Assembly: GCA_903851045.1 (NCBI GenBank)
Contig: CAINNF010000015.1
Location: forward strand, 32,644 to 96,643
Direction of reading: 5' to 3'
DNA: 64,000 nt
Source of the DNA: Candidatus Adlerbacteria bacterium
Lineage (GTDB): Bacteria; Patescibacteriota; Minisyncoccia; Phycocordibacterales; SBAW01
The translations under genes and the position numbers were made by a program. Positions 14,271-37,141 of this stretch are shown here, in pieces; positions within the stretch are counted from its first letter, which is position 1; every line of letters starts with the position of its first letter. Under the pieces are notes generated by a model. It saw only the letters and a list, made by a program, of their open reading frames with translations. It did not search any database and was not told the origin of the DNA.

Positions 14271-15236
14271 TTACTGAGCCTTGGAGGTGGCTTCAGCATA
14301 GTCAAAAATCCGGTGAACGCCATTGTATTGCTCTGGAGTGTAACTACGCAGCAACAGATTCTCATCACTCGATGAGATTCCATCTACTAATATCGGAATA
14401 TGGTGCTCTTTTATGGTAGTGATAATTTCATTTACTTCCAAAAACGTTGGACTGCCTATTCCCAAACCTCCCCAAGCTTCATAGTTACCCTTTTTTGTTT
14501 CAAATTCTAAATGTGGTGCAAAATATGGACCTGAGCAACCACCTCGACCACGACATATGGTGTACTGAGATGAATATAATTCCGCTTGTTTAACTTCCGT
14601 CCATTGAATTTTTTTAGCACCAACAATATCATCTCCGACTACAATTCCATCAGTACGGATTATTGTGTATGTATTAAAGAAAAGTATTGCAAGTAACAAC
14701 AAGGACCAAAGAATAATCCCGAATTCTAAAATACAAAGTAGGTCTTCCTTTAAGAAAAGTTTTGGAGTTCTCTTCCCACTTAAAATATATCGTTTCATTT
14801 GATGATGAAACCTTTCACGAGAGTTTAAAAACTGGTCATATTTCTTAAAGAAAATCTGAATGCACAACCTCCCAATAAGCCATATGGTTAGAGTTACAAG
14901 CCCTCCCAAAATGTACCCGAGAAAAAGCTCTCCAGAATTATCTACAGAAAAAGCTATATAGTTATTCTGAGTATAGAAATACCTCTGGAAAGCTGCGACT
15001 GGACCAAGACTAAAGAAAGCAATAACAAAAAAACAACACACAAGGGCTATGGAGGAGGTTGTTGGAATGTATTTATAAAACCATTTAACTGACACTTTTA
15101 TAGCTTCTGGCTGTTCTGTAAGTTGTTTTTTGGTCTTCTTGTTACTTCTATAAAACGAAATTAGCCAAGCCTCCACAACTGCCCAAACAATAAGTGCAAA
15201 ATAGAATGCTGCGGTTTGTAAATTTAAAATAGGCAT
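14271..15236 (-). CDS. AT-rich polytopic membrane protein with a C-terminal soluble domain (hypothetical)
   Basis: 321 aa at about 33% GC against a 58-62% host background. Four or five TM helices. Lies immediately 3' of tRNA-Asn. Confidence 0.55.
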   Translation of the reverse strand: MPILNLQTAAFYFALIVWAVVEAWLISFYRSNKKTKKQLTEQPEAIKVSVKWFYKYIPTTSSIALVCCFFVIAFFSLGPVAAFQRYFYTQNNYIAFSVDNSGELFLGYILGGLVTLTIWLIGRLCIQIFFKKYDQFLNSRERFHHQMKRYILSGKRTPKLFLKEDLLCILEFGIILWSLLLLAILFFNTYTIIRTDGIVVGDDIVGAKKIQWTEVKQAELYSSQYTICRGRGGCSGPYFAPHLEFETKKGNYEAWGGLGIGSPTFLEVNEIITTIKEHHIPILVDGISSSDENLLLRSYTPEQYNGVHRIFDYAEATSKAQ

Positions 15237-15288
15237 ACCCGCACAACAGACATACTGTAAATATTTTTAAGTTATCTGTCAAACTTTG

Positions 15289-15360
15289 CTCCGGCGGTAG
15301 GACTCGAACCTACAACCAACTCCTTAACAGGGAGCTGCTCTACCATTGAGCTACACCGGA
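15289..15360 (-). tRNA. tRNA-Asn (anticodon GTT); CCA not encoded
   Basis: Manual cloverleaf of the minus strand: UCCGGUG acceptor stem, D-arm GCUC-AAUGGUA-GAGC, anticodon loop CUGUUAA, T-arm GUAGG-UUCGAGU-CCUAC, discriminator G. Confidence 0.85.
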
Positions 15361-19006: not shown

Positions 19007-19345
19007 TCAGACAAAGATCCGTTCGAGATACATGGCGGGAGCACATGCCCTCCCGTACTTCTCGCCAAAATCTATAGACGCCCACACCACCGAAATCGGT
19101 TCAAGCTGGTGCTGACGCGTCACAAAACCTCGAACCGGGGCGATCGCTTTCACCTCACCCACCGCTCCCGCTGGCACCAGTTTGCTCTTGTGGAACCGTG
19201 GTATCGGCAACAGCGTTTGCACCTTCTCACCGACCTCGGTCGGTGGATATTGTGCACGCACCACCTCGGGTGCGTGTATATCGAACGGCCCCGTGTCATC
19301 ATCATCGTCACTGTCTTCAGGAGCCAGAGGTTCGGTCGACACCAT
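19007..19345 (-). CDS. Hypothetical protein (112 aa)
   Basis: Internal ATG (MVSTEPLAPEDSDDDDD...) with GAAGGA SD. Confidence 0.45.
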   Translation of the reverse strand: MVSTEPLAPEDSDDDDDTGPFDIHAPEVVRAQYPPTEVGEKVQTLLPIPRFHKSKLVPAGAVGEVKAIAPVRGFVTRQHQLEPISVVWASIDFGEKYGRACAPAMYLERIFV

Positions 19346-19525
19346 GTCTTTTCCTTCTTTCCCGCGCGCTTCTGCAACAAGACTTACACGTAATACAAAC
19401 CATGTCAATCGTATTGCTGCCCGAGGGCTCGGGTGTAGAAAAAAGTCCTTGCAGGAGACAACACCCTTGCCGAACGAAACTCGTCTCGGTAGGATGGCTA
19501 TAGAAGAGCACATGAGGAGGACGTT

Positions 19526-20194: not shown

Positions 20195-20253
20195 CGCACC
20201 TCTCCTTTCCTTCCCCGTTATACGCTAAAACGAAGACGAGCGCCACCGTGTAT

Positions 20254-20278
20254 AAAAACCGCCCCTGGGTCGGGGCGG
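20254..20278 (-). terminator. Rho-independent terminator for gene 20288-20863
   Basis: CCGCCCC-tgggtc-GGGGCGG with a T-run on the minus strand. Confidence 0.55.
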
Positions 20279-20287
20279 CGAAGACGA

Positions 20288-20863
20288 TCAAAAGGTCGGA
20301 AGGATGGTGTACGATCGCTCTCGACCCTTTCGCACCTTCACGTGTACGCAGCGCTCACTGGGCCTGATCTGTCGCAAAGATCGACGTAGTCGTGGGTACG
20401 CGAGCTTCTCGAGCGGATCCCCGGCAAGATCCCCCCACTCCGACACAAGCACGTACCCAAGCGTGATGGAGCGACACGACCCGTCCGTGTCCTCGAGGAC
20501 GGCGACGAAGATGAACTTCTCGTGTACCGTCGTGCCGTCAGGATAGTTGCATGCGAGGTCACGCACCCGGTCGAGCGTCGCCTGGCCGAAGGATCTGTTC
20601 ATGTAGCGAAGCGGGAGCACCGTCACGACACTCCCGACCCCACGATCGACGGCCGCGATGAAGTGCGCCTGATCCTGCACGCTGTAGAACAAAAGATAGA
20701 TGATCCTCGTGCCGGGCTTGCGACCGACAAAGACGAACTTATTCTCGTCGATCAACGCCCGCACCCGCTCCAACGGCAGGCGAAGCCGCTTCTGAGCATG
20801 CACTACCGCATGCCCCGTCGACACCGCTCTTTTCAACACGTCCTCCTGTCCCGTTTCGGGCAC
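20288..20863 (-). CDS. Hypothetical protein (191 aa); exact start uncertain (GTG or downstream TTG)
   Basis: ORF with CAGGAGGA near an alternative TTG start. No recognisable domain. Confidence 0.45.
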   Translation of the reverse strand: MPETGQEDVLKRAVSTGHAVVHAQKRLRLPLERVRALIDENKFVFVGRKPGTRIIYLLFYSVQDQAHFIAAVDRGVGSVVTVLPLRYMNRSFGQATLDRVRDLACNYPDGTTVHEKFIFVAVLEDTDGSCRSITLGYVLVSEWGDLAGDPLEKLAYPRLRRSLRQIRPSERCVHVKVRKGRERSYTILPTF

Positions 20864-20876
20864 GTCCCACTTTCAT

Positions 20877-20996
20877 TCAACCAAACAGCATTCTACACAA
20901 CATACCCAACTTGTGCACACGAGAAAGGCCTTCCGCGTTGTCGGATTCGACCAGCATAGGGTCTACATACTCGGCTCGTGTCACTGATTCGTTCAT
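20877..20996 (-). pseudogene. hsdR-derived relic: first 13 codons of hsdR fused to a segment matching hsdR near nt 22615-22642, then decayed
   Basis: Minus strand reads ATGAACGAATCAGTGACACGAGCCGAGTATGTAGACCCT. This is 36/40 nt identical to the hsdR 5' end at 24535-24574. It is followed by GTCGAATCCGACAACGCGGAAGGC, near-identical to hsdR 22615-22642. Its ATG sits 1 nt after the TAA stop of the upstream gene. Confidence 0.6.
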
Positions 20997-20997
20997 A

Positions 20998-22053
20998 TTA
21001 TGTTGCTATAGCCGCTTCGTGTCGTGCGCGCTCGACCATGAACCGCACCCCCTCGGACATGTTCTCTGCCTCGAGCTTGATGTCGGGATGCGCATGATGA
21101 AAGACTCGAAACACTTCGTCAGCGAATGCCTGCCCAACCGTTGGCACCTTGTCGAAGTCGAAGACGACATACTTGAACTTCTCCAGCCCCGTTAGCACAC
21201 GCCGCGCTTGGGAGCGAGAGATATGTACACCACCTATTGTATACAACTTCACGCGCACCTCGGTCTTGTCGAACCCATAGTCACTGGAGTCATCAAGGTT
21301 GGTGTACTTTTTAAATACGTCCTGCAAGTGTCGCTTGGACGTAGCCGAGAGCGTGAACGATACGCGCGTACCCCGCTTCATCTTCGACACCTTTTTCACG
21401 AACACATCTGGTGCTTTGTTGTCGACTATCAGCTGATATCCAAAACTGTCGAGGATGAACATATCAGCCACGCGCGAAGTAAAGAAGATACCTTCGCCCG
21501 AGTGCGACTTCGGCATCGTGGTTGTCTTACCTTTGAGAATATCTTGGATAGCCTCAAGTTCGGAGGCGAGGCCGCGCTGCCGCATCACGTTGCGAAACAC
21601 ACCGATGCCTGAATCTTGAATGACGAACGAGAGCGTCTTGTGGGGCACCGACACCTCGACCCCGATGCGCACTGACTGCGAGTGTTCGATAGCATTGTTG
21701 AACATCTCTGAAAACGCATACGTGAAGATACTCCGCACATTCTCAGGCAAATTCTCAAGCGTCGGGAATGCATGTTCTATCTGGTCGAGAACCTTGTGCT
21801 CTTCGAGCTGCTTGTTCGCAAAAGACTTAGCGTATCGAAGCGGCAAGATCTCTGGGTGCGCCCGAGCGTACTCGGGCAACACATAGAATGCATAGCGCGT
21901 CGCGCCAAACTTCATAAGCTGTCCATTGGCCACAAGCTCCTGGAGCAAAACGTGTATATATTGTCGCGACACGCCAAAGGAGTCTGAGAGTTCAGTCGAG
22001 GTTATCCTCCCCTTCTGCTTTGCCAAAGCAACTATATTTTCGGGTGTAATCAT
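20998..22053 (-). CDS. Winged-HTH - GHKL (histidine-kinase-like) ATPase - STAS-like (DUF4325) domain protein
   Basis: N-terminal wHTH (ITSTELSDSFGVSRQYIHVLLQEL). GHKL N-box EMFNNAIEHS, G1 IQDSGIGV, G2 SHSGEGIFF. C-terminal ...VFDFDKVPTVGQAFADEVF matches the STAS-like DUF4325 pattern. Confidence 0.7.
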   Translation of the reverse strand: MITPENIVALAKQKGRITSTELSDSFGVSRQYIHVLLQELVANGQLMKFGATRYAFYVLPEYARAHPEILPLRYAKSFANKQLEEHKVLDQIEHAFPTLENLPENVRSIFTYAFSEMFNNAIEHSQSVRIGVEVSVPHKTLSFVIQDSGIGVFRNVMRQRGLASELEAIQDILKGKTTTMPKSHSGEGIFFTSRVADMFILDSFGYQLIVDNKAPDVFVKKVSKMKRGTRVSFTLSATSKRHLQDVFKKYTNLDDSSDYGFDKTEVRVKLYTIGGVHISRSQARRVLTGLEKFKYVVFDFDKVPTVGQAFADEVFRVFHHAHPDIKLEAENMSEGVRFMVERARHEAAIAT

Positions 22054-22231
22054 AATGGTATCGACAAGTCATTGTCAACCAAAGTATATTCTATTGTCAA
22101 CCCATTGTCAACCAGCCACATCACACGCACCTGTGAATAAAAAGGGTACTCAGCACACTGCCAGACTCTACCCCTGCTCCGTCTCCCAAATTTTTATTTT
22201 CATAGAGTACTGTATATCCCCAGACTAGTAA

Positions 22232-24574
22232 CTATTTAGAATATAGCCCGATTTGAAAAGCGAAAAACTGCGAACGAATAGCGTCCACGTCCCCGAGTAC
22301 CTGTTCGGCGTCTGAGAGCGCATGATATTTAAGATTAAGAAGCACTGGCAACTTCTCCTCACCAAGTTCCATGTCGCCCCCCTCCTCGTACTTCTTGAGA
22401 ACAAACGACAGAAACTCTTTTTGTGCTCCGCTCACTGAATCAAGGATGGTGCTTTTGTTGCGCTCCACTCTGTCCTTTCGTGTTATTGGTCGTGTTGCGA
22501 ACGAGACATATGACAGCACATCAAACAGGTCGCTGTTTTCGGCATCAATCATTTTCTGCAACGTTTCCAACTCATCACGACCAAAACCAAGCTCGGCGAT
22601 ACGATCGAGAAATGCCTTCCGCGTTGTCGGATTTGACCAGATGTTTCGAAGCTCTTCTTCATTCTTAAAGAACTCGGGCATCGCACCAAACATATTTTGA
22701 ATAAACTCTTCGGCAGAGATTGGCTTACCGTCTGCACCCCAAAACGAAGTCGAGATCATGTACTGGATTTCTCGCTCCTTGCCGTCTCTGAGTTTGATTA
22801 TAATTTTCTTTTTCTGTTCAATAGGCTCTGGAGTTTGTTCAGGCTCTGTGTGCTCCCTGCGCTCTTTTGGCTTCTTGGGAGTACTGGGTTCCACATCCTC
22901 TGCCTCAATCGGCTCGCCATCCCACTCTGGGTCAGCGAAGTGTTTATACGCATCCACGAAATCGTAGATCGTAAAATACTCCTTACCGTCAAACAGTCGG
23001 GTGCCGCGACCGACAATCTGCTTGAACTCAATCATTGAGTTCACAGGACGCATCAAGACAATGTTTCGCACATTGCGAGCATCCACACCAGTCGACAACT
23101 TTTGCGAAGTGGTGAGAATGGTCGGAATACTCCGCTCGTTATCCTGGAATTCGCGCAAAAACTGCTCGCCGCGGGCTCCATCGTTCGCCGTGACACGGAC
23201 GCAGTAGTTCGGGTCGGTGCTGTCTTTCATCTGATTCACCAAATCGCGCACCGCGAGCGCGTGCGTCTGATTGGCACAAAAAATAATAGTCTTCTCGTCT
23301 TGGCGTATTTCATCAAGCACGATACGTACGCGCTTGGCCTCGCGCTCTTTGATCTCAATAATCCTATTAAAATCCGCTTCTTCGTATATCTTACCCTGCT
23401 CTACTTCACCCTCGACTACCTCGTCGTCCGACGTGTACACATAGTCGTCCAAGGTCGTCTGGATGCGCTTCACTTTAAACGGCGTCAGGAAGCCGTCATT
23501 GATACCCTGCTTGAGCGAGTAGGTATAGAGCGGATCACCGAAATACTTGTAGGTGTCTACATTGTCGACGCGCTTCGGGGTCGCCGTGAGACCTAGCTGT
23601 ACCGCTGGAGCAAAATAATCGAGGATGCTGCGCCAGTTGGATTCGTCGTTCGCTCCCCCACGGTGACATTCGTCGATAATAATCAAATCAAAAAAGTCTG
23701 CCGGATAATCGCCAAAATACGGCGTATTGTTTGACCCACCCTGCGGTGAGGTACTCGAACCCGTCATGAACGTCTGAAAAATAGTAAAGAATATGCTCCC
23801 GTTGGTCGGGATTGCGCCTCGCTTGCGGATCTCGAGCGGGTTAATACGTACAAGTGCATCCTCGGGAAAAGCGGCGAAAGCATTGTACGCTTGGTCTGCA
23901 AGAATATTTCGATCGGCCAAAAAGAGCACTCGCGGGCGACGCTTGCCATCGCGCTGAAGTGTCCAACGGGCTTGGAAGATCTTCCATGCGATCTGGAATG
24001 CGATAGTCGTCTTCCCCGTCCCGGTCGCGAGCGTGAGCAGGAGTCGCTTCTTGTTTTCGGCGATAGCATCGAGCGCGCGATTGATAGCAATCTCTTGGTA
24101 GTATCGCTTGCCATACTCACCCTCAAGAGGGATCGAAGCGAATGTCTCCTTCCACTGCGCCGTCTGTGACTCCTCGTGGCCAAACAGCTGCGCCCACAAC
24201 TCCTCAGGTGTTGGGAACTTCTCGACATATTCCTCCTTTCCACTCTTCATCGACACACAATAAATCTCTCGACCGTTGGTCGAATAGGTGTGCTCGATTT
24301 GGAGCTTCTCTGCGTACGCCTTCGCCTGGGCGACACCTTCGGTCGCAGGCAGGTCGAGCGCTTTCGCCTCCACCACAGCGAGCTTCTGGTTCTTGTACAC
24401 CAACACATAGTCCGCGATCTCGGGTTTGGCGCGCACGCCACCCGTCTGGATCTTGCCGTCCGTAATGCGAAACTCGCGCAACACGCGCGACCCTTCCACC
24501 TCACCCCAACCGGCTTCCTTGAGCTTAGGGTCTACGTACTCGGCTCGCGTCTCTGATTCGTTCATTAAAACCAT
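22232..24574 (-). CDS. hsdR: Type I restriction enzyme R subunit (compact, 780 aa)
   Basis: N-terminal PD-(D/E)xK nuclease motif (D...VVEAK), Walker A LATGTGKT, DECH box (IIDECHRG), helicase motif VI (QIVGRGTR). The true start may be the second ATG (MNESE). Confidence 0.9.
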   Translation of the reverse strand: MVLMNESETRAEYVDPKLKEAGWGEVEGSRVLREFRITDGKIQTGGVRAKPEIADYVLVYKNQKLAVVEAKALDLPATEGVAQAKAYAEKLQIEHTYSTNGREIYCVSMKSGKEEYVEKFPTPEELWAQLFGHEESQTAQWKETFASIPLEGEYGKRYYQEIAINRALDAIAENKKRLLLTLATGTGKTTIAFQIAWKIFQARWTLQRDGKRRPRVLFLADRNILADQAYNAFAAFPEDALVRINPLEIRKRGAIPTNGSIFFTIFQTFMTGSSTSPQGGSNNTPYFGDYPADFFDLIIIDECHRGGANDESNWRSILDYFAPAVQLGLTATPKRVDNVDTYKYFGDPLYTYSLKQGINDGFLTPFKVKRIQTTLDDYVYTSDDEVVEGEVEQGKIYEEADFNRIIEIKEREAKRVRIVLDEIRQDEKTIIFCANQTHALAVRDLVNQMKDSTDPNYCVRVTANDGARGEQFLREFQDNERSIPTILTTSQKLSTGVDARNVRNIVLMRPVNSMIEFKQIVGRGTRLFDGKEYFTIYDFVDAYKHFADPEWDGEPIEAEDVEPSTPKKPKERREHTEPEQTPEPIEQKKKIIIKLRDGKEREIQYMISTSFWGADGKPISAEEFIQNMFGAMPEFFKNEEELRNIWSNPTTRKAFLDRIAELGFGRDELETLQKMIDAENSDLFDVLSYVSFATRPITRKDRVERNKSTILDSVSGAQKEFLSFVLKKYEEGGDMELGEEKLPVLLNLKYHALSDAEQVLGDVDAIRSQFFAFQIGLYSK

Positions 24575-24629
24575 TATGCAACGCGGCAGATTTTATGTAA
24601 ATGACCCACAGGCGACACATGAACACCCC

Positions 24630-25022
24630 TTAAAAGAGATGTTTGTAGGCTGGGTAATTATTCTTAATGATCTGCTGCCACTCTGCTGTTTCGTTGTGCC
24701 CGCTGAGATCCGTCTTGGTATACACGAGCAGCACCGACACCGACTGCTGCTGCTTGTGCCACGCGACTATACAGCGATTCCCCGACGTCTTAGCAGACTC
24801 TTGTGTCCCAGCAACACGAAACTTCGTCTTGATGATCAATATATCACCAGCATCACACACCGTCTCAGCCCTGCTCGTTAAGATGAGTGCATCGATGCGC
24901 TCAAGCTCTGCCATAATCGCGAGCAACGTGACGTCCCATTTCGCCTTGTATTTCTTTGAAAAACTTTTGATAAAGTGACGCTCGGCAAACACCTCGATAT
25001 TAACAGCATTATTGCCTGGCAT
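24630..25022 (-). CDS. Putative toxin partner of the adjacent PanA-like antitoxin (130 aa; RelE/ParE-like fold suspected)
   Basis: Small basic protein 7 nt downstream of the HTH-DUF4065 gene. The ...RCIVAW...VSVLLVYTKTD pattern loosely resembles the RelE/HigB C-terminal strands. Confidence 0.4.
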   Translation of the reverse strand: MPGNNAVNIEVFAERHFIKSFSKKYKAKWDVTLLAIMAELERIDALILTSRAETVCDAGDILIIKTKFRVAGTQESAKTSGNRCIVAWHKQQQSVSVLLVYTKTDLSGHNETAEWQQIIKNNYPAYKHLF

Positions 25023-25029
25023 ATATGCG

Positions 25030-25722
25030 CTAGAACACCTCGTCGGGGTCCTCTTGGGTGATCAGTTCGTACGGAATAATTTCGTCCATGCGGCACAGCA
25101 CATAGGGCAGCTGATTGTGCGTAAACGTAACGATCTCCTGCGTCTTTTTATCTTTCCACTTCGCGGCGATCTTCTTGAGTAACGCTTGCTCTTTGGGTGA
25201 CACTGTTTGTATCTTTTCGTTCCTATTACTCTCTGACTCACCGACCAAGAACATCTCCTTTCCGTTCTCATTCTTGTGGTCGATCACGATCTTACCATCC
25301 TGCTCGAGCTCATCAAGCGCGCGAAAGAACGCATCCGGCACGGGGCCGTATGCGATCTTGCGATATGACATACCACTCATGCTCTCCATGTGCTCATAGA
25401 ACCAAGCGAAGTCCGCCAAATAGAGCAGCTTCGCGAGCTTGGTCTTGGGTATCTTACCGTCTTTCGACAGGTTCATGCGTAGATAGAGCAGCAACATCTG
25501 CTTGTACTTGGCGATGTTCGGAATATTCCCTGACAATAACTCGTCGACAGTGATACCAAACAAACTCGCCAGCTTCTGAGCTTCGTCAGTATCGAGCTTC
25601 TGCTTACCCACCTCGATGGCCGTATACGTGGGACGAGACACCCCAATAGCCTTCGCCACCTGCTCTTGGGAAAGCTTGTGGGCGACGCGAAGCTCCTTGA
25701 GCTTTCGCATATACGTATTCAT
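25030..25722 (-). CDS. HTH_XRE + DUF4065 (Panacea domain) protein; PanA/SocA/GepA-like antitoxin
   Basis: N-terminal Cro/C1 HTH (LRVAHKLSQEQVAKAIGVSRPTYTAIEVGKQ). C-terminal KTKLAKLLYLADF...AYGPVPD matches the DUF4065 signature (KLxKLLY...GPV). Start set at the internal ATG after a TM-less, low-complexity over-extension. Confidence 0.7.
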   Translation of the reverse strand: MNTYMRKLKELRVAHKLSQEQVAKAIGVSRPTYTAIEVGKQKLDTDEAQKLASLFGITVDELLSGNIPNIAKYKQMLLLYLRMNLSKDGKIPKTKLAKLLYLADFAWFYEHMESMSGMSYRKIAYGPVPDAFFRALDELEQDGKIVIDHKNENGKEMFLVGESESNRNEKIQTVSPKEQALLKKIAAKWKDKKTQEIVTFTHNQLPYVLCRMDEIIPYELITQEDPDEVF

Positions 25723-26053
25723 ACCCAAAAGTGTATACGAACCATGTAAAGAAGTCAAGCGATTTTGGTCGAAATATTGACGTACAGATTCTGAAGCGTA
25801 AAATATGTCTACTGGCATGGTCGAGCCAGGTAAGAACAAGTGATCAAATCGTAATAACATGAGTAAGACAAACGGAATCAGAAGCAGTAAGAATCTCGCT
25901 AGTAAAGCGGCGAAAGCTCTTAGTAGTGGTAGCACCAGCAAGAACACAAAGTCCCTTGCTGCAAACACCCTCGGCAACAGAGCAAAAAAGAGTCACTAGA
26001 CGGAATGAAACTATGCAAAAATCCACACTATGCCAAGTAGGGTGGATTTTACT

Positions 26054-27244
26054 TTACAACTCCCCTGCGAATGCCTGCTGCAAAATCGACTTCTTGAGCT
26101 CATCCAAACAAGCCAACTTCTTGGCATAGATCTCCTCCAGCTTTTTGGTCTCCCCCGCCAAAGCATCCAACTTTTTAACTATCGCTTTTTGTTCTGGAAA
26201 AGGCGGCAACAGAAACTCAAAGGCAAATAGATGCTCTCGATTTACCTTTGGCATACCGGCTCTATCCGAACCCAAAATTGCATACTTAGTGAAACCAGAT
26301 GTTAATAGTAGATAATACAAAAAATCTCTATTCAATGTTTTTTCGTCGGGCAATAGAGGATATATGTCCGCACTGCACAGTCCGTCAAAATCTGGCCTAA
26401 CTACTTTCATTAAGTATGGTCGTATTTTGCTGTATAACACCATATTCTTATCAAAAATAAACTTTCCAGAAATAAGTTTTTCTTCTTTTGCTGTCTTAAC
26501 ATCAATAAGCTCTCCTGTCTTTGCTTGAATATTTCCAGCTCCAACGTGCCGCATATTTAGAAACCGCTTCTCCCTCGGGTCGACCAGTTTTGAAGCAATC
26601 GCGCACACAGTATCTAGTCGAATTAATTTCCATCCCTCCCCCGGATTAGCAAAAACACCTTGTAAATAAGACTCAAAAAGCTCGCGGGAATTCTGCAAAT
26701 TCTTTTCTGTGTTCGCTTTCGCCTTTTCAATTTTCTCAAAAACTTCATCCAGAATTTTCACAATCCTCTTTTGCTCGGTTAGGGGTGGGAGTGGAATTTC
26801 TATTTCGCCCAAATTTTTACGACTAATTCTTGTTCTTGTCGTCCCACTAGTTTTTCCTGCAACTGCATCTAAGTAGAGATTTGATTGAGAATAGTAATTA
26901 AAATATCGGGGAATAATTTTTAGTGGATCAAAACGAGCAATACTACAATCAACCGCAGTTATCATTCTTTCCCCGGTATTTGGCAAAATACATGCACGAC
27001 CTACAGGGTCGGGCAGACGAGAGATCAGGCAGTCGCCTTTAAAAATTTCGGTGCACCTCAATCTGTTAAATGTCTTTTCCGAAATATAACGCGCCTTCTC
27101 TCCCCTGTCTTTGAAAACACCGACACCTACGTTGCCGGTCTGGATAAGACGAATTCCATCTCTCGATTGATCCTTACTCTCTATCCAATTACCATCCGTA
27201 AAGACCTTACAGACTTCACCTAGTTTCTTTGTTTGTAACATCAT
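26054..27244 (-). CDS. hsdS: Type I restriction-modification specificity subunit (two TRDs)
   Basis: Conserved central and C-terminal repeats (LPPLTEQKRIVKILDEVFEKIEKAK... / LPPFPEQKAIVKKLDALAGE...). The start overlaps the upstream gene's stop as ATGA. Confidence 0.9.
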   Translation of the reverse strand: MMLQTKKLGEVCKVFTDGNWIESKDQSRDGIRLIQTGNVGVGVFKDRGEKARYISEKTFNRLRCTEIFKGDCLISRLPDPVGRACILPNTGERMITAVDCSIARFDPLKIIPRYFNYYSQSNLYLDAVAGKTSGTTRTRISRKNLGEIEIPLPPLTEQKRIVKILDEVFEKIEKAKANTEKNLQNSRELFESYLQGVFANPGEGWKLIRLDTVCAIASKLVDPREKRFLNMRHVGAGNIQAKTGELIDVKTAKEEKLISGKFIFDKNMVLYSKIRPYLMKVVRPDFDGLCSADIYPLLPDEKTLNRDFLYYLLLTSGFTKYAILGSDRAGMPKVNREHLFAFEFLLPPFPEQKAIVKKLDALAGETKKLEEIYAKKLACLDELKKSILQQAFAGEL

Positions 27245-28218
27245 ACGTATTGAGCCTTGTTTTCTTCGCAATGTTTTTTTACAAAATTAAACCAGTTTTC
27301 GTACCAATACCATGTCTTTTCAATTTCTACCCCAAACCCTTTAGACAGATCTTTTGCATTTTCGCTTTTCCAAAGCTGTGTATGTTTATGTAATCCAAAC
27401 CGGGTATACCCAATCTTGTTCATTTCGCTAACTATTTTTTTGGGCAAATATTTTGGCTTTTCTTTATCTCTAAAAGCCCAATACTCTTTATTTAGGCCTT
27501 TTGCTATTTCAGAATTTGGATCCACAAACTCTATCACCTTATCAGCTTGACCTTTTCTATTTGCAGTCTTTGGGACAAACAAGACTCTATAAGAAAATCT
27601 ACTATTATTGAACTCATCCTCAGGCAGTCCTTCATCAAACGCCTCAATATATGTGGCAATATTACTAGGAAGATCTTTATAATCTGAGAGCTGATTAATT
27701 TGTTTCTCACTTAGTGAGGAGAATTGTAAACTGAATGAAAGGTGCTTTTCGATACTTTTTTCGTTCGGAAATAATTTTTTTAGATACTCATTATAATTCA
27801 AGCAGCAAGCCTGAAATCTTGCACTTAAAAGATCGTCTATTCTTGTAGTCATCTGATGTTCGATTTCGTGCCTAAGACCTATCAGAAAAAGCAGGTTGGA
27901 CACAGCAACCCTGTCGATTGGTGATTTTTTATCATTCAAGCACCGTTCAAGTTCCCAATATTTATAAGCACCATTCTTTGTAAAATCAAACTTCCTGTTT
28001 TTGCCTTTTTGCTCAAAATACCTATATTCAATTTTCTTGCTACGATAGTACGCATGCAACAGATATGTCCACGCAATAATTGCTAGCACTATAAAAGATT
28101 CGGATTTAAACTGAATATTTGGATTATTAAAAACTTGAACAGCTGTCAATATAGACTCTTTCGATTTTAAGATTAGTTCGTCTTTGACTGAGTGAAGCTT
28201 TCTCTTTCTCTTTGCCAT
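27241..28218 (-). CDS. AT-rich hypothetical protein embedded between hsdM and hsdS; candidate HEPN-motif (Rx4H) Abi-like protein
   Basis: 325 aa at about 33% GC, 6 nt downstream of hsdM, with ATGA coupling to hsdS. Contains LIGLRHEIEHQ (R-x4-H). The HEPN assignment rests on this one motif. Confidence 0.5.
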   Translation of the reverse strand: MAKRKRKLHSVKDELILKSKESILTAVQVFNNPNIQFKSESFIVLAIIAWTYLLHAYYRSKKIEYRYFEQKGKNRKFDFTKNGAYKYWELERCLNDKKSPIDRVAVSNLLFLIGLRHEIEHQMTTRIDDLLSARFQACCLNYNEYLKKLFPNEKSIEKHLSFSLQFSSLSEKQINQLSDYKDLPSNIATYIEAFDEGLPEDEFNNSRFSYRVLFVPKTANRKGQADKVIEFVDPNSEIAKGLNKEYWAFRDKEKPKYLPKKIVSEMNKIGYTRFGLHKHTQLWKSENAKDLSKGFGVEIEKTWYWYENWFNFVKKHCEENKAQYV

Positions 28219-28224
28219 ACGGTC

Positions 28225-29688
28225 TTATATTTTTCCTCCAAGCTTACCCGTGATTACGGAAATTTCTTTATCAAGCGCTTTCATTGCTTTTAAAATCTCC
28301 TTAGGGCTGCGCAGCGTCACTTCCCCGCCTTTGTTGGGGTTCTTGACTGAGAGGTCAAAGGTTTTTGGGTCTATGTCTTTAGCGTCCACGCTCCAGGAAT
28401 TTTCGGAGTCGGCTTTGGTTTTTTGGAGCTTCACGAAGTCGGCGAGGTCGGCTTCGCTCAGTGGATTTGTTTTACCGAGGTTGCGTGGGAGGTTGAGTTG
28501 GTAGAACCACACCTTGCGGGTTGGTTTGCCTTTTTCGAAAAAGAGGACGACTGTTTTGACTCCGGCACCTTGGAAGGTCCCGCTCGGGAGGTCGAGGATG
28601 GTGTGGAGGTTGCAGTTCTCCAGCAAAAGCTTGCGCAGGCTCACCGAGGCGTTGTCGGTGTTAGAGAGGAAGGTGTTTTTGATGACGATGCCAGCGCGGC
28701 CGCCAGCGCGGAGAATTTTGATGAAGTGTTGGAGAAAGAGGAAGGCCGTCTCGCCTGTTTTGATAGGGAAGTTTTGTTGGATCTCGCTGCGGATACCCGC
28801 GCCAAACGGCGGGTTGGCGAGGACGATGTCATAGCGGTCTTTCTCTTGGATGTCGGCGATATTTTGTGCGAGGGTGTTGCCGTGCACGATGTTGGGCGCT
28901 TCGACGCCGTGGAGGATCATGTTCATCGTGCCGATGATGTAGGCGAGCGATTTTATCTCTTTGCCATAAAAAGTCTTCTTTTGGAGCGTCACCCAGTCTT
29001 TTGGTTGCAGCTTCTCGGTGTCCCCTTTCATGTAGACGAACCCTTCGGCCAAGAAGCCCGCCGAGCCGACTGCCCCGTCGTAGACGGTCTCGCCAATTTT
29101 TGGATCAACGACTTTGATGATTGTGCGGATGAGCGAGCGCGGCGTATAAAACTCGCCACCGTTGCGTCCCGCGTTGCCCATGTTCTTTATCTTGTCTTCG
29201 TAGAGGTGCGAGAGCTCATGCTTTTCGGAGTCGGTGCGGAAATGCATCGTATCGACTATGTCGAGGATGTTGCGCAGCGTATAGCCGCTCTGGATCTTAT
29301 TCTTCAACTCGCTAAATATCTCCCCTATTTTATATTCGATAGTGTCAGGACTCTCGGCACTCGCTTTAAATTTCTTGAGGTATGGGAATAGGTCACGATC
29401 GACGAACGTGTTGAGGTCGTCGCCCGAGAGTGCTTTATTGTGGTCGAGTTTGCCCTGTGGCGTCTTGGGTGCTGCCCAGACCTCCCAGCGGTACTGTGGC
29501 GCGATGATTGGTTTGTAGGCTCGGCCGGAGAGCTTCGCCGCTTTCTTCTTTTCTTCCTCCAAGTCGTCGAGGTACTTGAGGAAGAGGATCCACGACGTCT
29601 GCTCGATATAGTCGAGCTCCGTCCCCACCCCCGCGTCGCGGTGGAGTATGTCGTCTATGTTCTTAAACGCCTGCTCAAACATGTTCAA
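28225..29688 (-). CDS. hsdM: Type I R-M N6-adenine DNA methyltransferase subunit
   Basis: NPPFG catalytic motif (VLANPPFGAG), an AdoMet-binding region, and the N-terminal HsdM helical domain. Confidence 0.9.
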   Translation of the reverse strand: MNMFEQAFKNIDDILHRDAGVGTELDYIEQTSWILFLKYLDDLEEEKKKAAKLSGRAYKPIIAPQYRWEVWAAPKTPQGKLDHNKALSGDDLNTFVDRDLFPYLKKFKASAESPDTIEYKIGEIFSELKNKIQSGYTLRNILDIVDTMHFRTDSEKHELSHLYEDKIKNMGNAGRNGGEFYTPRSLIRTIIKVVDPKIGETVYDGAVGSAGFLAEGFVYMKGDTEKLQPKDWVTLQKKTFYGKEIKSLAYIIGTMNMILHGVEAPNIVHGNTLAQNIADIQEKDRYDIVLANPPFGAGIRSEIQQNFPIKTGETAFLFLQHFIKILRAGGRAGIVIKNTFLSNTDNASVSLRKLLLENCNLHTILDLPSGTFQGAGVKTVVLFFEKGKPTRKVWFYQLNLPRNLGKTNPLSEADLADFVKLQKTKADSENSWSVDAKDIDPKTFDLSVKNPNKGGEVTLRSPKEILKAMKALDKEISVITGKLGGKI

Positions 29689-30812: not shown

Positions 30813-30950
30813 CACAGACCCCTTTTGTGAACATGTAGCCTTGTGCATTAAACACGAAATTGTACAAAACGCAACACTCCCGATCACGCACAAAAACACC
30901 CCAAATCGGGGTGTTTTTGTAAACATACAAGATGGCCTGTATATTTTTGC

Positions 30951-32609
<1,659 letters not shown>

Positions 32610-33020
32610 TTATTGAATAATCGCGAGGATGCTCGACTCGGGGAGGATAAGATATTCGACACCAGAGACCTTAATCTCGTCGAAGCCGTACTTGGAGAAC
32701 ATGACGCGGTCGCCGACCTGCACATTGAGCGCGATAAGCTCGCCCGTGTCGCTGCGCTTACCGGGGCCGACGGCGACGACAGTGCCCTGCTCCGGCTTCT
32801 CCTTCGAAGATTCAGGGATCACGATACCGAACAGGGTGACGGTCGCGAGATCCTCGGCCGAGAGCGCCTTCACGAGCACACGGTCACCAAGCGGGGTGAC
32901 GCCGACCGAATTCTTTGGTACCTGCACCGCGGCCTTTGGCGTGCTCACGTGAACCGTCTTACTTGGAGCCTTCTTGACTGGCTTCGAAACCTTCTTCACA
33001 CTCTTGGTCTTTTTCTTCAT
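32610..33020 (-). CDS. groES: Co-chaperonin GroES with a roughly 40-aa Lys-rich N-terminal extension
   Basis: The GroES core (VTPLGDRVLVKA...GTVVAVGPG...) is preceded by MKKKTKSVKKVSKPVKKAPSK.... Confidence 0.85.
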   Translation of the reverse strand: MKKKTKSVKKVSKPVKKAPSKTVHVSTPKAAVQVPKNSVGVTPLGDRVLVKALSAEDLATVTLFGIVIPESSKEKPEQGTVVAVGPGKRSDTGELIALNVQVGDRVMFSKYGFDEIKVSGVEYLILPESSILAIIQ

Positions 33021-33156
33021 AGCAAAATCGCGTTTATGACTTAGTAATTAATGGGTAATGTGAAGCGCCCAGATCGCACTGGTTTGTCGTGACAATAATA
33101 GACAACCCTCGCGAATAGTCAACGTCCGACCGCGTATCTATCCTGCCCAAGGAGGA

Positions 33157-33185
33157 TTGCACCCTTTTTGGGATTGTGGTAGATT
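33157..33185 (+). promoter_or_regulatory. Candidate promoter TTGCAC-N17-TAGATT for secG (possibly leaderless)
   Basis: The hexamers end about 7 nt before the secG ATG. No SD between them. Confidence 0.3.
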
Positions 33186-33192
33186 GGCAGTA

Positions 33193-33423
33193 ATGAACTT
33201 GCACGGCATATTGCCGTATATTCAGATAGTCCTCTCTGCCGCACTCATTGGGTGCGTCCTTTTGCAGCAGACTGGCGCATCGCTGGGTGGCGCATTCGGT
33301 GGGGACAACTTTAGCGCGGCATACCACACCCGTCGCGGCAGTGAGAAGTATCTGTTCTACGCCACGATCATCGTCGGCGTCCTGTTCGCGACTTCGTCGT
33401 TCGTATCGTTCATCGTGCACTAG
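33193..33423 (+). CDS. secG: Preprotein translocase subunit SecG
   Basis: Two TM helices flank a Gly-rich loop (LLQQTGASLGGAFGGDNFS), as in SecG. Confidence 0.7.
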   Translation: MNLHGILPYIQIVLSAALIGCVLLQQTGASLGGAFGGDNFSAAYHTRRGSEKYLFYATIIVGVLFATSSFVSFIVH

Positions 33424-33453
33424 GCTCTCACCACCAACTAACAACCGCTCCTT

Positions 33454-35205
33454 ATGCGCACACAGAGCTCGGCTTCATCTGCCTACTCCTCGCTTGTCAG
33501 CACCACGCAGGACACTATCCGCTCGTTCTCACCAGGCGGCAGGGTTTTGTTCTATTTCTTTTCACTGCTCCTGGTCGTGAGTTCGACCGCTTTGCTGTAT
33601 CTGTTGAACGCGAGACTGCTCGTCGAGATGCCGACCCGCGGCGGTTCGTTCACCGAAGGTGTGATCGGCGCGCCACGATTCATCAACCCGGTACTCGCCG
33701 TATCGGACGCCGACCGTGACCTCACCACGCTCGTCTATTCGGGACTTCTCAAGGCGTCTCCGCAGGGTGGGTACATTCCCGACCTCGCCTCGTCCTACAC
33801 CATCTCACCTGACGGGAAGACCTATACGTTCACCTTGCGCCCGAACGCGAAGTTCGAAGACGGCACGCTGGTCACTGCGGACGATGTCGTGTACACGATC
33901 CAGGAGACACAAGACCCGGTCCTCAAGAGTCCTGAGCAGGCGAACTGGAGCGGCATCGTCGTGCAGAAGGTCGACGAACACACCATCTCCTTCTCGCTCA
34001 AGCAGGCGTACGCACCGTTCATCGAAAATCTCACCATGGGCATACTGCCGAAGCATCTCTGGCAGAACGTGAGCGACGATGAGTTCCCCTATAGCGACCT
34101 GAACACCGAACCAGTCGGCTCCGGGCCCTTCAAGGTCGACTCACTGTCGCGCACATCCTCCGGTGTACCTTCGTCGTACAAACTGGTTGGCTCACACTAC
34201 TACGCGCTCCAGCGACCGTACCTTTCGGACATCACCTTCCACTTCTACCAGAACGAGGACGACCTTATCGACGGTCTGAAGAAGGGTGAGGTGTCCGCTG
34301 CGAGCGGCATATCTCCCTCTCGCCTCTCCGAAGTGTCTGGACATATGATCGACCGCGCGCCGCTCAACCGGGTCTTCGGCGTCTTCTTCAACCAAAATCA
34401 GTCGGCCGTACTGCGCGACAGTGCGGTGCGCAACGCGCTGAACGAAGCTATCAACCGCGACGAGCTCGTACAACAAGTGTTGGGCGGCTACGGCGCCCCG
34501 CTTGCAGGCCCGCTCCCGCCGAGCGTCTTGCCGTCGAATTTCATTACTACGACGAGCTCCGCGAACACCGCCGACCTGGTCGCACGAGCGAAGAGCGATC
34601 TGCTTGCCGCTGGCTGGCAGCCCGGCCCTGGCGGCATACTCCAAAAGACCACCGGCTCGGGTAAAAGTGTGACCACGCAACCGCTCACGTTTAGCATCTC
34701 GACCGGCAACGTGCCAGAGCTCCGCGCCGCCGCCGAGTACCTGCGAAAGACCTGGGGAGAGGTCGGCGCGCAAGTGAGCGTGCAAGTGTACGACCAGGGC
34801 GACCTCGCTCAGAACGTCATCCGTCCGCGCAAATATGACGCACTCCTCTTCGGCGAGGTCATCGGCCGCGAACCGGACCTCTTCGCCTTTTGGAGCTCCA
34901 GCGAGCGACTCGACCCGGGACTCAATATCGCCATGTACGCGAACGCGAGCATAGACAAATTGCTCTCCCAGTTGCGTGCTACGACGGACGAAACCCAAAA
35001 GAGCGCGCTCTATCAACAGTTTACGACCGCGGTGCTAAAGGACGACCCTGCCGTATTTCTCTATGCGCCGGATTTCGTGTATATTGTCCCTAAAGACATT
35101 GCGGGGCTCGACCTCGGATTCATTGAGACGCCAAGTGACCGTTTTTTGAGCGTCACGAACTGGCATCGGGAGACAGACAAAGTCTGGCCTCTGTTCGCGA
35201 GATAA
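33454..35205 (+). CDS. ABC transporter substrate-binding protein, family 5 (oligopeptide/dipeptide/nickel type)
   Basis: N-terminal TM anchor. SBP_bac_5-like motifs (SPDGKTYTFTLRPNAKFEDGTLVTADDVVYT). Confidence 0.8.
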   Translation: MRTQSSASSAYSSLVSTTQDTIRSFSPGGRVLFYFFSLLLVVSSTALLYLLNARLLVEMPTRGGSFTEGVIGAPRFINPVLAVSDADRDLTTLVYSGLLKASPQGGYIPDLASSYTISPDGKTYTFTLRPNAKFEDGTLVTADDVVYTIQETQDPVLKSPEQANWSGIVVQKVDEHTISFSLKQAYAPFIENLTMGILPKHLWQNVSDDEFPYSDLNTEPVGSGPFKVDSLSRTSSGVPSSYKLVGSHYYALQRPYLSDITFHFYQNEDDLIDGLKKGEVSAASGISPSRLSEVSGHMIDRAPLNRVFGVFFNQNQSAVLRDSAVRNALNEAINRDELVQQVLGGYGAPLAGPLPPSVLPSNFITTTSSANTADLVARAKSDLLAAGWQPGPGGILQKTTGSGKSVTTQPLTFSISTGNVPELRAAAEYLRKTWGEVGAQVSVQVYDQGDLAQNVIRPRKYDALLFGEVIGREPDLFAFWSSSERLDPGLNIAMYANASIDKLLSQLRATTDETQKSALYQQFTTAVLKDDPAVFLYAPDFVYIVPKDIAGLDLGFIETPSDRFLSVTNWHRETDKVWPLFAR

Positions 35206-35239
35206 CATGATCAAAAAAATTATTTAAGTAATTAATCGT

Positions 35240-37141
35240 ATGGAAGAACAAAACAAAAGACCGCAAGGAGGTCGCAGACCACAAGGTGCGCGGACCGGTG
35301 CCCCACGAAAGTTCGGTAAAGGTCGCCCGCTCAACCGCCGCGGCGGCCGCAACAACGGCCCACGCCCGCACCAGGCTCCCCCGCCTCGCCCAGCACTCGG
35401 AGGGACACGTGAGTTGAGCGACCAAGGTACCAATAGTCCGAACGAGGACAAGCCTATCCCGCCGTTGGAGATGGGTAACGTCCGCATCATCCCACTGGGT
35501 GGCGTCGAAGAGATCGGCCGCAATATGACCGCGGTCGAGTTCGGCGATGATATCGTCATCATCGACTGCGGATTCCAATTCAAAGAGGACGACACTCCCG
35601 GTATCGACTATATTTTGCCGAACACGAAGTATCTGGAGGACCGTGCCGGTAAGATCCGCGGCATGTTCATCACGCACGGCCACCTCGACCACATCGGCGG
35701 TATCCCGTACATCATCGACCGCATCGGCTACCCGCCGATCTTCACCCGCCGACTCACGAGCGTCATGATCCGCAAGCGACAGGAGGAGTTCCCCAATCTC
35801 CGACCCCTCGATATTCACGAGGTCGAGAGCACCGACTCTATCAAGGTTGGCAACCTGCGCGTACGCTTCTTCGCGGTGACGCACACGATCCCCGACTCCA
35901 TGGGAGTCGTCGTCGAGACGCCCTACGGCCACATGGTCTTTACCGGTGACCTCAAGCTCGACCATGTCGACGGTGTCCCGACCGAAGCGGAAGAAAAGGA
36001 GTTCAGCTTCTTCGATGACAAGAAGGTGCTCTTCCTCGCCGCGGACTCGACCAACGTCGAGCGTCCGGGATTCTCGCTGCCAGAAAGTGTCGTGCAAAAG
36101 AACATGGACGATATCATTCGCGACACGAACGGTCGCCTCATCATCGGCACCTTCTCCTCGCAACTCGAGCGTATCATGCGCATCGTCGAGTCAGCGGAGC
36201 GCTATGGCAAGAAGATCCTCGTCGAAGGTCGCAGCATGAAGGTCAACATCGAGATCGTGAAGCAGCTCGGCATGCTCAAGGTCTCGGAGAAGACGTTTAT
36301 CGGTCCAGAACAGTTAGAGTCGATACCTGACAGCAAGGTGATCGTGCTCGCCACTGGCGCCCAAGGCGACGAGTTCGCTGCCCTCATGCGCGTGGCTATC
36401 AAGACGCACAAGTACGTGAAGATCAAAAAAGGTGACACGGTCGTCCTGTCCTCGTCGGTCGTCCCTGGCAACGAGCGCTCGGTGCAGAAGCTCAAGGACA
36501 ACCTCTCTCGACAGGGCGCGCGCATCATCCACCGCGACACGATGGACGTCCACGCCTCCGGTCACGCTAACCGCGACGAGACCTTCTGGATCCACTCCAA
36601 GATCAATCCGCGATTCTTCATGCCGCTGCACGGCTACCACTACATGCTGCGCGTCCACGCCGACATCGCCAAGGCTTGCGGCCGCGCCGAGAGTGACATC
36701 ATCGTGCCCGACAACGGCGCGATACTGGAGATCCGCGACGAAGGTACCGTCTTCACGCGACTGAAAGAGACCGCGCCGAACAGTCTGCGCCTCGTCGACG
36801 GCTTTTCTATCGGCGACATCCAAGAGGTGGTCATTCGCGACCGCAACGTCCTCGCCCAAGAAGGTATGTTCGTCATCATCGCCACCGTCAACCCAAAGAC
36901 CGGGAAGCTCCGCAAGTCGCCCGACATCATCTCGCGCGGCTTCGTGTACCTGCGCGAGAACCAAGACCTCCTCTCGCAAACGCGCCTCATCATCAAGAAA
37001 ACGATCGAGGACACAACCCACAACATGCAGCCGGTCAACTTCGACTACGTCAAAAACAACGTCACCGACGCCGTCGCCCGCTTCCTCTTCGAGAAGACCA
37101 ACAAGCGCCCGATCGTGATCCCAGTTGTCTTGGGAGTATAA
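35240..37141 (+). CDS. rnj: Ribonuclease J (metallo-beta-lactamase / beta-CASP) with an Arg/Pro/Gly-rich N-terminal extension
   Basis: ITHGHLDHIGG motif plus the beta-CASP and C-terminal domains. The first roughly 65 aa are low-complexity R/P/G-rich. Confidence 0.85.
   Translation: MEEQNKRPQGGRRPQGARTGAPRKFGKGRPLNRRGGRNNGPRPHQAPPPRPALGGTRELSDQGTNSPNEDKPIPPLEMGNVRIIPLGGVEEIGRNMTAVEFGDDIVIIDCGFQFKEDDTPGIDYILPNTKYLEDRAGKIRGMFITHGHLDHIGGIPYIIDRIGYPPIFTRRLTSVMIRKRQEEFPNLRPLDIHEVESTDSIKVGNLRVRFFAVTHTIPDSMGVVVETPYGHMVFTGDLKLDHVDGVPTEAEEKEFSFFDDKKVLFLAADSTNVERPGFSLPESVVQKNMDDIIRDTNGRLIIGTFSSQLERIMRIVESAERYGKKILVEGRSMKVNIEIVKQLGMLKVSEKTFIGPEQLESIPDSKVIVLATGAQGDEFAALMRVAIKTHKYVKIKKGDTVVLSSSVVPGNERSVQKLKDNLSRQGARIIHRDTMDVHASGHANRDETFWIHSKINPRFFMPLHGYHYMLRVHADIAKACGRAESDIIVPDNGAILEIRDEGTVFTRLKETAPNSLRLVDGFSIGDIQEVVIRDRNVLAQEGMFVIIATVNPKTGKLRKSPDIISRGFVYLRENQDLLSQTRLIIKKTIEDTTHNMQPVNFDYVKNNVTDAVARFLFEKTNKRPIVIPVVLGV

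Follow-up and report, generated by a model that had tools for sequence, protein, structure and literature searches.

A short hsdR relic behind a GHKL ATPase gene in a Type I restriction-modification locus of Candidatus Adlerbacteria

The Type I restriction-modification (R-M) locus described here raises the question of why two separate parts of an hsdR gene recur, joined to each other, directly behind a GHKL ATPase gene on the other side of which a complete hsdR is present. The locus was analyzed within a window of 64,000 nucleotides (the whole stretch of DNA considered here). A first-pass annotation made from the sequence alone had read positions 20877 to 20996 as the scar either of a second hsdR copy or of an internal-deletion derivative, left by illegitimate recombination. 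Our reading, to which we assign a probability of roughly 0.85, is that this relic is the non-functional remnant of a second hsdR of the EcoAI family (here named hsdR'), which was the original downstream partner of the GHKL gene and was lost by at least two deletions.

The Type I locus and its surroundings

On the minus strand, the genes follow one another in the order GroEL, MazG-like, hsdM, DUF3644, hsdS, HTH-Panacea, p130, hsdR, GHKL, relic, and 182-aa gene. The Type I system other than hsdR, with its embedded cargo, spans 24630 to 29688 of this strand. The features that the argument needs are as follows.

28225-29688, minus strand: hsdM (Pfam, NCBIfam, and PADLOC)
27241-28218, minus strand: DUF3644/PDC-S19 gene, a PADLOC candidate (E 3e-162) embedded between hsdM and hsdS
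26054-27271, minus strand: hsdS of the Type I system
25030-25977, minus strand: HTH_3+SocA_Panacea gene, embedded cargo
24630-25022, minus strand: p130, 130-aa partner of the HTH-Panacea gene, embedded cargo
22232-24565, minus strand: resident full-length hsdR, 777 codons, EcoAI/FtnUII family (NF046051 and Pfam)
22054-22170, minus strand: 5' region of the GHKL gene, with three direct TTGACAAT repeats, promoter-like TTGACA-17-TATACT, and an upstream hairpin-like element
20998-22053, minus strand: intact gene for a wHTH-GHKL ATPase-DUF4325 (STAS-like) protein of 351 aa (Pfam HATPase_c and DUF4325)
20877-20996, minus strand: relic of the probable second hsdR (hsdR'), about 120 nt, with a 39-codon open reading frame (ORF) ending in TGA at 20879-20877
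20952-20996, minus strand: 5' stub of hsdR', codons 1 to 15, MNESVTRAEYVDPML, 40/45 identical to resident hsdR 24565-24521
20952-20954, minus strand: deletion junction with a CTG (2 to 3 nt) microhomology, read directly from the sequence
20920-20954, minus strand: internal fragment of hsdR', gene nt 1926-1960, with the motif WSNPTTRKAFL of the EcoEI_R_C domain
20877-20919, minus strand: tail of low GC content (0.42) that ends in the TGA of the relic ORF
20288-20836, minus strand: 182-aa gene downstream of the relic, with a TTG start, an AGGAGG Shine-Dalgarno sequence, and a host-like GC content of 0.60

The resident hsdR is complete. Its product matches the NF046051 equivalog model with 812 bits (cut-off, 550) over residues 1 to 775 and carries the Pfam domains ResIII, Helicase_C, and EcoEI_R_C. 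Its family-conserved start, MNESETRAEY, lies at 24565; the ATG at 24574 chosen by the ORF finder adds three codons (MVL), and public gene calls take this longer form of 780 aa. The GC content of the R-M block ranges from 0.34 to 0.55, and that of the DNA downstream of about 20876 is host-like (0.60). Within the block, the DUF3644 gene has a GC content of 0.34 to 0.39 versus 0.52 to 0.54 in its neighbours, which suggests that it is a separate, recent import together with hsdS. The HTH_3+SocA_Panacea gene and its 130-aa partner (24630-25977) are located between hsdS and hsdR and constitute a putative toxin-antitoxin pair of the Panacea type; related pairs are found close to GHKL genes at L171:10195-11290, downstream of hsdR, and at L077:2265-3409 (67 to 70% identical).

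Searches for further traces of a second system gave no result within the window. The sequence CTTTTAAGGGG just upstream of the resident hsdR was considered as an hsdS 3' remnant and proved to be the native and conserved p130 C terminus (NYPAYKHLF-stop, compared with NYPEYKKFF-stop in L077). The 178 nt that separate hsdR from GHKL contained no candidate for an hsdS 3' remnant that scored above shuffles, and no hsdS or hsdM remnant of a second system was detected upstream of GHKL within the window. A plasmid search with 20200-24700 returned no match.

Synteny with the closest relatives (L214, L216, and L218; GroEL 91 to 93% identical) holds over RNase J-SBP_bac_5-SecG-GroES-GroEL (window 30950-37138) and stops right after GroEL; nowhere does the window contain the LemA-DUF2207-peptidase M48 block of these relatives. 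This places the R-M block in a region that is variable or has been rearranged. At window 14271-15360, a tRNA-Asn gene (15288-15360, minus strand) adjoins a 321-aa ORF that has no Pfam or PHROG match, with a GC content of about 0.36 in a genome of 0.55 to 0.60; an integrated element may have its edge here. The small downstream ORFs had no PHROG matches.

Two hsdR segments joined at a microhomology

Alignment to the resident gene confirmed that both hsdR matches are real: they are collinear, lie on one strand (minus) in the order in which they occur in hsdR, and are significant against shuffles. The first piece, 20996-20957, agrees with the beginning of the resident hsdR (24565-24526) at 37 of 40 positions (BLAST E 5e-10), and 100 dinucleotide shuffles contained no match with three or fewer mismatches. 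The similarity had initially been described as 36 of 40 nt against hsdR 24535-24574; these coordinates are offset by 9 nt because the ORF finder starts hsdR at 24574 and not at 24565. The homology extends to 45 nt if the parent allele encoded P-M-L, a variant present in 10 of 120 EcoAI-family HsdR proteins. For the second piece, 20954-20920, 33 of 35 nt agree with resident hsdR 22640-22606 (BLAST E 2e-9; no match in 100 shuffles), and it was also recovered by a repeat search. It is longer than the 27 nt first reported and, as had been read, encodes WSNPTTRKAFL in the hsdR frame.

This motif is nearly invariant in the 120 family proteins, with which the relic shares both WSNPTTRKAFL and MNESxTRAEY(V/I)DP. 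Judged by homology at these conserved motifs, the relic derives from an hsdR gene of the EcoAI/FtnUII family. It is not itself a functional hsdR of this family, having 39 codons, no Pfam match, and 77 of the 2,334 nt of hsdR, out of frame.

At the junction, the relic reads CCTATGCTGGTCGAATCC; the corresponding sequences of the resident hsdR are CCTAAGCTC... near the start of the gene and ...ATCTGGTCAAATCC in its interior. The two pieces are fused at a microhomology, as originally noticed: CTG is common to both sides, or CT if the presumed parent sequence carried CTC as the resident does. Gene nt 1-45 are joined to nt 1926-1960 with the loss of 1,883 nt (gene nt 46-1928), and as this number cannot be divided by 3, the relic ORF reads the second piece in a different frame. 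The final 374 nt of hsdR' are missing as well. An internal-deletion derivative that keeps the 3' end, the second option of the first-pass annotation, is thus contradicted both by the absent 3' end and by the out-of-frame internal junction. With fragments on the same strand and in the same order, the middle missing, and a microhomology at the junction, the relic is a deletion-derived pseudogene remnant; at least two deletions would have taken about 97% of hsdR'.

Similarity to hsdR ends abruptly at 20920, and the recognizable relic has a GC content of 0.53. Two sources were considered for the tail beyond it; the first was rejected and the second was not supported. The 43 to 83 nt past 20920 gave local alignments within the shuffled range when compared with the 3' ends and downstream regions of 68 family genes. 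A decayed GHKL operator was suggested by a match of 15 of 19 nt between 20877-20895 and 22075-22093, but 36 of 500 shuffles equalled it, and the operators of other loci are unlike the tail.

The GHKL-hsdR junction in other lineages and the parent of the relic

The ATG of the relic lies 1 nt past the TAA stop of the GHKL gene. Homologues of the GHKL protein are widespread and unusually well conserved across candidate phyla (6,477 matches, 59 to 87% identity), and we inspected 80 species-representative loci plus loci for three closer homologues. GHKL-DUF4325 is not represented by any model in PADLOC or NCBIfam, nor does its sequence match an entry in the PDB; three papers in the literature searched mention DUF4325, and judged by title and abstract none of them is devoted to it. 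The TTGACAAT repeats ahead of the gene (22111-22104, 22100-22093, and 22078-22071) are strongly conserved across loci with GHKL proteins of 60 to 87% identity. Each of the 13 homologous loci inspected has three or four direct copies that overlap promoter-like hexamers, and these repeats are a likely candidate operator for the protein's own wHTH domain. IMG/VR viral and prophage contigs (L175-L213) harbor only distant GHKL-DUF4325 relatives (31 to 47% identity) and no member of the R-M-linked GHKL subfamily.

In two other lineages (L030 and L171-173), the GHKL gene sits inside a complete hsdM/hsdS/hsdR operon, between hsdS and hsdR, and a full-length hsdR follows at a stop/start junction of the form TAA-N-ATGAAYGA. 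The order is hsdM-x-hsdS-GHKL-hsdR in L030, where the GHKL TAA is followed by TT and then by ATGAACGAATCAGAGACACGAG..., the beginning of a full-length hsdR 71% identical to that of the window. It is hsdM-AAA_15-hsdS-GHKL-TAAC-ATG-hsdR-PDDEXK-(HTH-Panacea)-(p137) in L171-173. When the sequence past each GHKL stop was scored with a position matrix from 80 family hsdR starts, the intact L030 gene reached 117, and scores of 13 to 105 were obtained for the window and for L009, L012, L014, L035, L036, L040, and L051. Nearly all other loci scored 7 or less, the exception being L055 (12), a probable false match. Together with L168, which carries a decayed 10-nt stub (ATAAACGAGC), truncated hsdR 5' stubs thus occupy the same junction in at least eight other lineages. 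Their breakpoints all differ (about 10, 12, 20, 22, 25, 36, 45, and 200 nt) and the sequences beyond are unrelated, indicating independent truncations. Some stubs have lost the start codon (ACG in L012 and ATA in L168), and others reach early stops.

Since the GHKL stop and the hsdR ATG are found at the same distance (1 to 2 nt) with intact hsdR genes and with stubs elsewhere, the junction in the window is ancestral. The claim that rearrangement had brought an hsdR-like initiation region behind the GHKL gene does not hold: L030, L171-173, and the eight stub lineages have this arrangement too. It follows that the relic is probably what is left of the original partner of GHKL and that the intact hsdR upstream is the extra copy. 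In the window, GHKL comes after the resident hsdR and before the hsdR' remnant; compared with L030 and L171, HTH-Panacea, p130, and hsdR separate hsdS from GHKL, and of the hsdR that should follow GHKL only the wreck is left. An hsdS-[cargo]-hsdR layout is typical of the family, with gaps between hsdS and hsdR of 0 to about 2.4 kb among 80 metagenomic loci.

Both pieces of the relic are the two most conserved motifs of the family, so identity to the resident gene alone is no proof of descent. We compared the 80 informative nt of the relic with the resident and with 81 other family genes from metagenomes and genomes. The resident agrees at 73 of 80 nt (91%) and the best of the 81 others at 62 of 80, with means for the others of about 31/45 and 23/35 for the two pieces; the rare YVDP variant, too, is common to relic and resident. 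Of the seven differences between them, five are synonymous third-position changes in the hsdR frame, and one of the other two, E5V, strikes a near-invariant residue. The synonymous excess over these seven sites has a p of about 0.05 versus uniform decay and is not significant if the resident lineage made most of the changes. The surviving segments thus make hsdR' a sister of the resident hsdR, either an allele or a paralogue, with about 9% divergence, and not an identical duplicate. Because most of the differences are synonymous, the comparison also suggests that the parent evolved for some time as a working gene. This sister relationship can be regarded as demonstrated, as can the homology, the junction, the frame shift, and the conserved GHKL-hsdR junction in other genomes.

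We propose the following course. Two sister hsdR genes would have come to coexist by recombination of alleles with different cargo, by a tandem arrangement of systems, or by duplication; the original layout assumed here, hsdM-(cargo)-hsdS-GHKL-hsdR, is still seen elsewhere. The gene hsdR' would have been dispensable, either with one complete hsdR present (the resident, 1.2 kb upstream) or with restriction lost. An out-of-frame deletion of 1,883 nt would have joined codon 15 to codon 642 at the CTG microhomology, and another would have removed everything past codon 653. The bases adjacent to GHKL would be the last to go; they may survive because a longer deletion would cut into GHKL, a gene under strong purifying selection. 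The order of events, the reason why the stub was kept, and whether the deletions occurred at this site are what we infer. An intact hsdR' at this position was not encountered in any genome, and the parent gene is deduced from its remnant. In its core, the first-pass suggestion of a scar from a second hsdR copy, cut down by illegitimate (microhomology) deletion in a rearranged locus, is upheld.

Alternative origins and the wider pattern of stubs

According to a different history, the GHKL cassette arrived already carrying the truncated hsdR pieces, the deletions having occurred in a donor before illegitimate recombination, and the relic would then be uninformative about rearrangement of this particular locus. 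This we consider rather unlikely. Its basis is that related GHKL genes bear stubs joined to unrelated DNA, so that the window stub, too, could have arrived truncated. Truncated 5' ends of R-M genes other than the family's hsdR follow GHKL relatives, 2 to 12 nt after the stop. In L039, L048, L053, and L058, these are stubs of an EcoRI-type adenine methyltransferase (PF13651) of 8 to 64 codons, with different breakpoints and unrelated downstream DNA behind GHKL genes that are 91 to 98% identical, which speaks for import; the L058 stub matches PF13651 positions 1-38 (E 1.5e-9), and the other three are shorter. An hsdM gene follows GHKL in L075 (truncated, 55 codons) and L084 (intact), and L086 has a 46-codon stub of an hsdR of another family.

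Scraps are also found on the upstream side. L035, L040, and L051 keep the last hsdS codons (KAFxGEL-stop) just upstream of the GHKL operator. In L035 (1474-2844), the unit consisting of an hsdS 3' stub, the TTGACAAT operator, GHKL, and a 36-nt hsdR stub lies between two direct copies, 82 nt long and 90% identical, of the 5' end of a host membrane-protein gene. This unit resembles an insertion that duplicated a long stretch of its target, and it likewise favors arrival of the cassette in truncated form. The same can be said of the cassette that the window shares with L005, from the upstream hairpin via the operator to the stop codon of GHKL, in different surroundings: the L005 GHKL protein is 87% identical and lies in another context with no stub, and the hairpin-like element is common to both loci (2 of 400 shuffles match L005 as well). 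Separately, a 168-aa ORF of the window (19007-19513, minus strand), located some 1.5 kb downstream of GHKL, shares a C-terminal domain with L005:2970-3581, a gene about 1.6 kb downstream of the L005 GHKL (41% identity over 83 aa, E 2e-15). We take this likeness as weak residual synteny between otherwise different contexts.

Against an import stands the parentage of the relic. At 73/80, the parent is far closer to the resident hsdR than to the 81 other genes (62/80 or less), as for a local paralogue or allele, and an import fits this closeness only if the donor carried the sister system; moreover, the cassette directly adjoins a complete system of the same family. A transposon or integrative cassette with defined ends was rejected, as no recombinase or transposase lies beside the window GHKL and the sequences past the stubs are unrelated between loci. 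A target duplication of fixed length was also rejected; the single case seen, in L035, is 82 nt long and 90% identical.

The relic could also have been copied from the resident hsdR by local partial duplication or template switching when GHKL was inserted, so that no second hsdR ever existed. The two pieces do repeat resident sequence directly, with order and strand preserved. However, the junction with GHKL matches that of full-length loci and of eight independent stub loci, a coincidence not expected if a duplication had ended there by chance. Most of the 9% divergence is at synonymous sites, and the relic encodes P-M-L, a natural family variant, at a site where the resident encodes P-K-L. 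We regard such a copy as very unlikely.

That the 39-codon ORF or its RNA is under selection, as a leader or micropeptide coupled to GHKL or as a promoter for the 182-aa gene, is still harder to believe. An ATG 1 nt after the GHKL stop makes reinitiation plausible, a weak promoter-like sequence (TGCACA-16-TAGAAT) lies at 20917-20890, and no terminator-like site was found between GHKL and the 182-aa gene, after which one is present (20279-20258). But the promoter match is 9/12 only, and stubs elsewhere vary in length, some without an ATG (L012 and L168) or with early stops. The RNA fold of the relic is no better than that of shuffles (z = -0.61), and Rfam has no match in the region. No gene is called for the relic in public assemblies, and its peptide is absent from the protein collection. 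The relic sequences available are identical copies from one species. As no terminator separates the two genes, the loss of hsdR' may have exposed the 182-aa gene to read-through from the GHKL promoter.

Finally, chance similarity or an assembly chimera has a negligible probability in view of the E values of the two pieces (5e-10 and 2e-9), the complete lack of matches among 100 shuffles for each, and the identity of the junction in independent assemblies from three projects. Positions 20877-20996 and their flanks are 100% identical in four such assemblies (SRR8496337, SRR8496336, ERR4195021, and GCA_903945565.1), comprising two Logan runs, one further run, and one GenBank metagenome-assembled genome. 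Judged from the assemblies, the stretch is therefore not a mis-assembly, a concern raised in the first-pass annotation. Thirteen contigs encode a GHKL protein identical to that of the window. The arrangement is the same on every contig with this exact protein or with the exact 191-aa protein, and none represents an empty site or an intact hsdR' variant.

Implications and comparison with known systems

The relic itself is an ordinary scar that documents a Type I locus which probably once had two hsdR copies, one of them lost. It also serves as a marker, indicating that hsdR was the original partner to which an uncharacterized wHTH-GHKL-STAS gene of very wide conservation was coupled. Rare deletions of hsdR and/or GHKL could arise through the direct repeats of 45 and 35 nt that the relic has in common with the intact hsdR. 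The recurrent R-M stubs behind GHKL are more interesting than the relic: stubs of four R-M gene types follow GHKL relatives and suggest the same history in many Patescibacteria and other bacterial lineages. For the GHKL family, this leads to the hypothesis of an R-M-linked regulation or defence that outlives its partner, with the stubs helping to follow the movement of the cassette. As a speculative extension, the GHKL gene could be an accessory module (regulatory or defensive) born in R-M operons and repeatedly excised and reinserted in the form of a roughly 1.2-kb cassette that takes scraps of adjoining genes along. If so, the scraps would be the hsdS 3' end on one side and the 5' end of hsdR, hsdM, or a methyltransferase gene on the other. 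The relic would then be one footprint of a still undescribed movement of genes out of R-M systems, and the stubs would be molecular fossils tracing the source of each copy.

Partial hsd copies near a full copy are also a feature of phase-variable hsd loci with hsdS shufflons or invertons (PMC7672463), but the repeats in the window are direct, not inverted, and belong to hsdR, not hsdS. A phase-variable shufflon was rejected, as the repeats are direct, no adjacent recombinase was found, and the four assemblies have one fixed arrangement.

Accessory genes embedded in Type I operons have been described for TgvAB on VPI-2 of Vibrio cholerae (PMC11411939) and for DarTG2 with the repressor RptR in an enteropathogenic E. 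coli (EPEC) Type I operon (PMC12255303), and a guilt-by-embedding survey listed candidate genes in this position (bioRxiv 10.1101/2024.01.29.577857). The main text of that preprint does not name GHKL-DUF4325. The GHKL gene between hsdS and hsdR in L030 and L171 resembles these cases, as does the cargo of the window (DUF3644/PDC-S19 and HTH-Panacea). Like the target promoter of RptR (PMC12255303), the GHKL promoter has three direct repeats; the repeat is TTGACAAT and not the TAGCTA of RptR, and a defensive or regulatory role of GHKL is putative.

With respect to EcoAI/FtnUII (Type IB) HsdR (NF046051), the pieces of the relic correspond to the N-terminal motif of the family and to WSNPTTRKAFL, and the relic cannot encode an R subunit. 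Microhomology-mediated (illegitimate) deletion is known to leave gene remnants, for example where decaying restriction genes give rise to orphan methyltransferases. The relic resembles such decaying genes in its collinear fragments, 2- to 3-nt microhomology, frame shift, near-total loss of the ORF, and origin from a dispensable restriction subunit. It differs from them in that it is a second copy beside an intact hsdR, so that the system is not orphaned, and in that it is anchored to the stop codon of a conserved neighbour gene.
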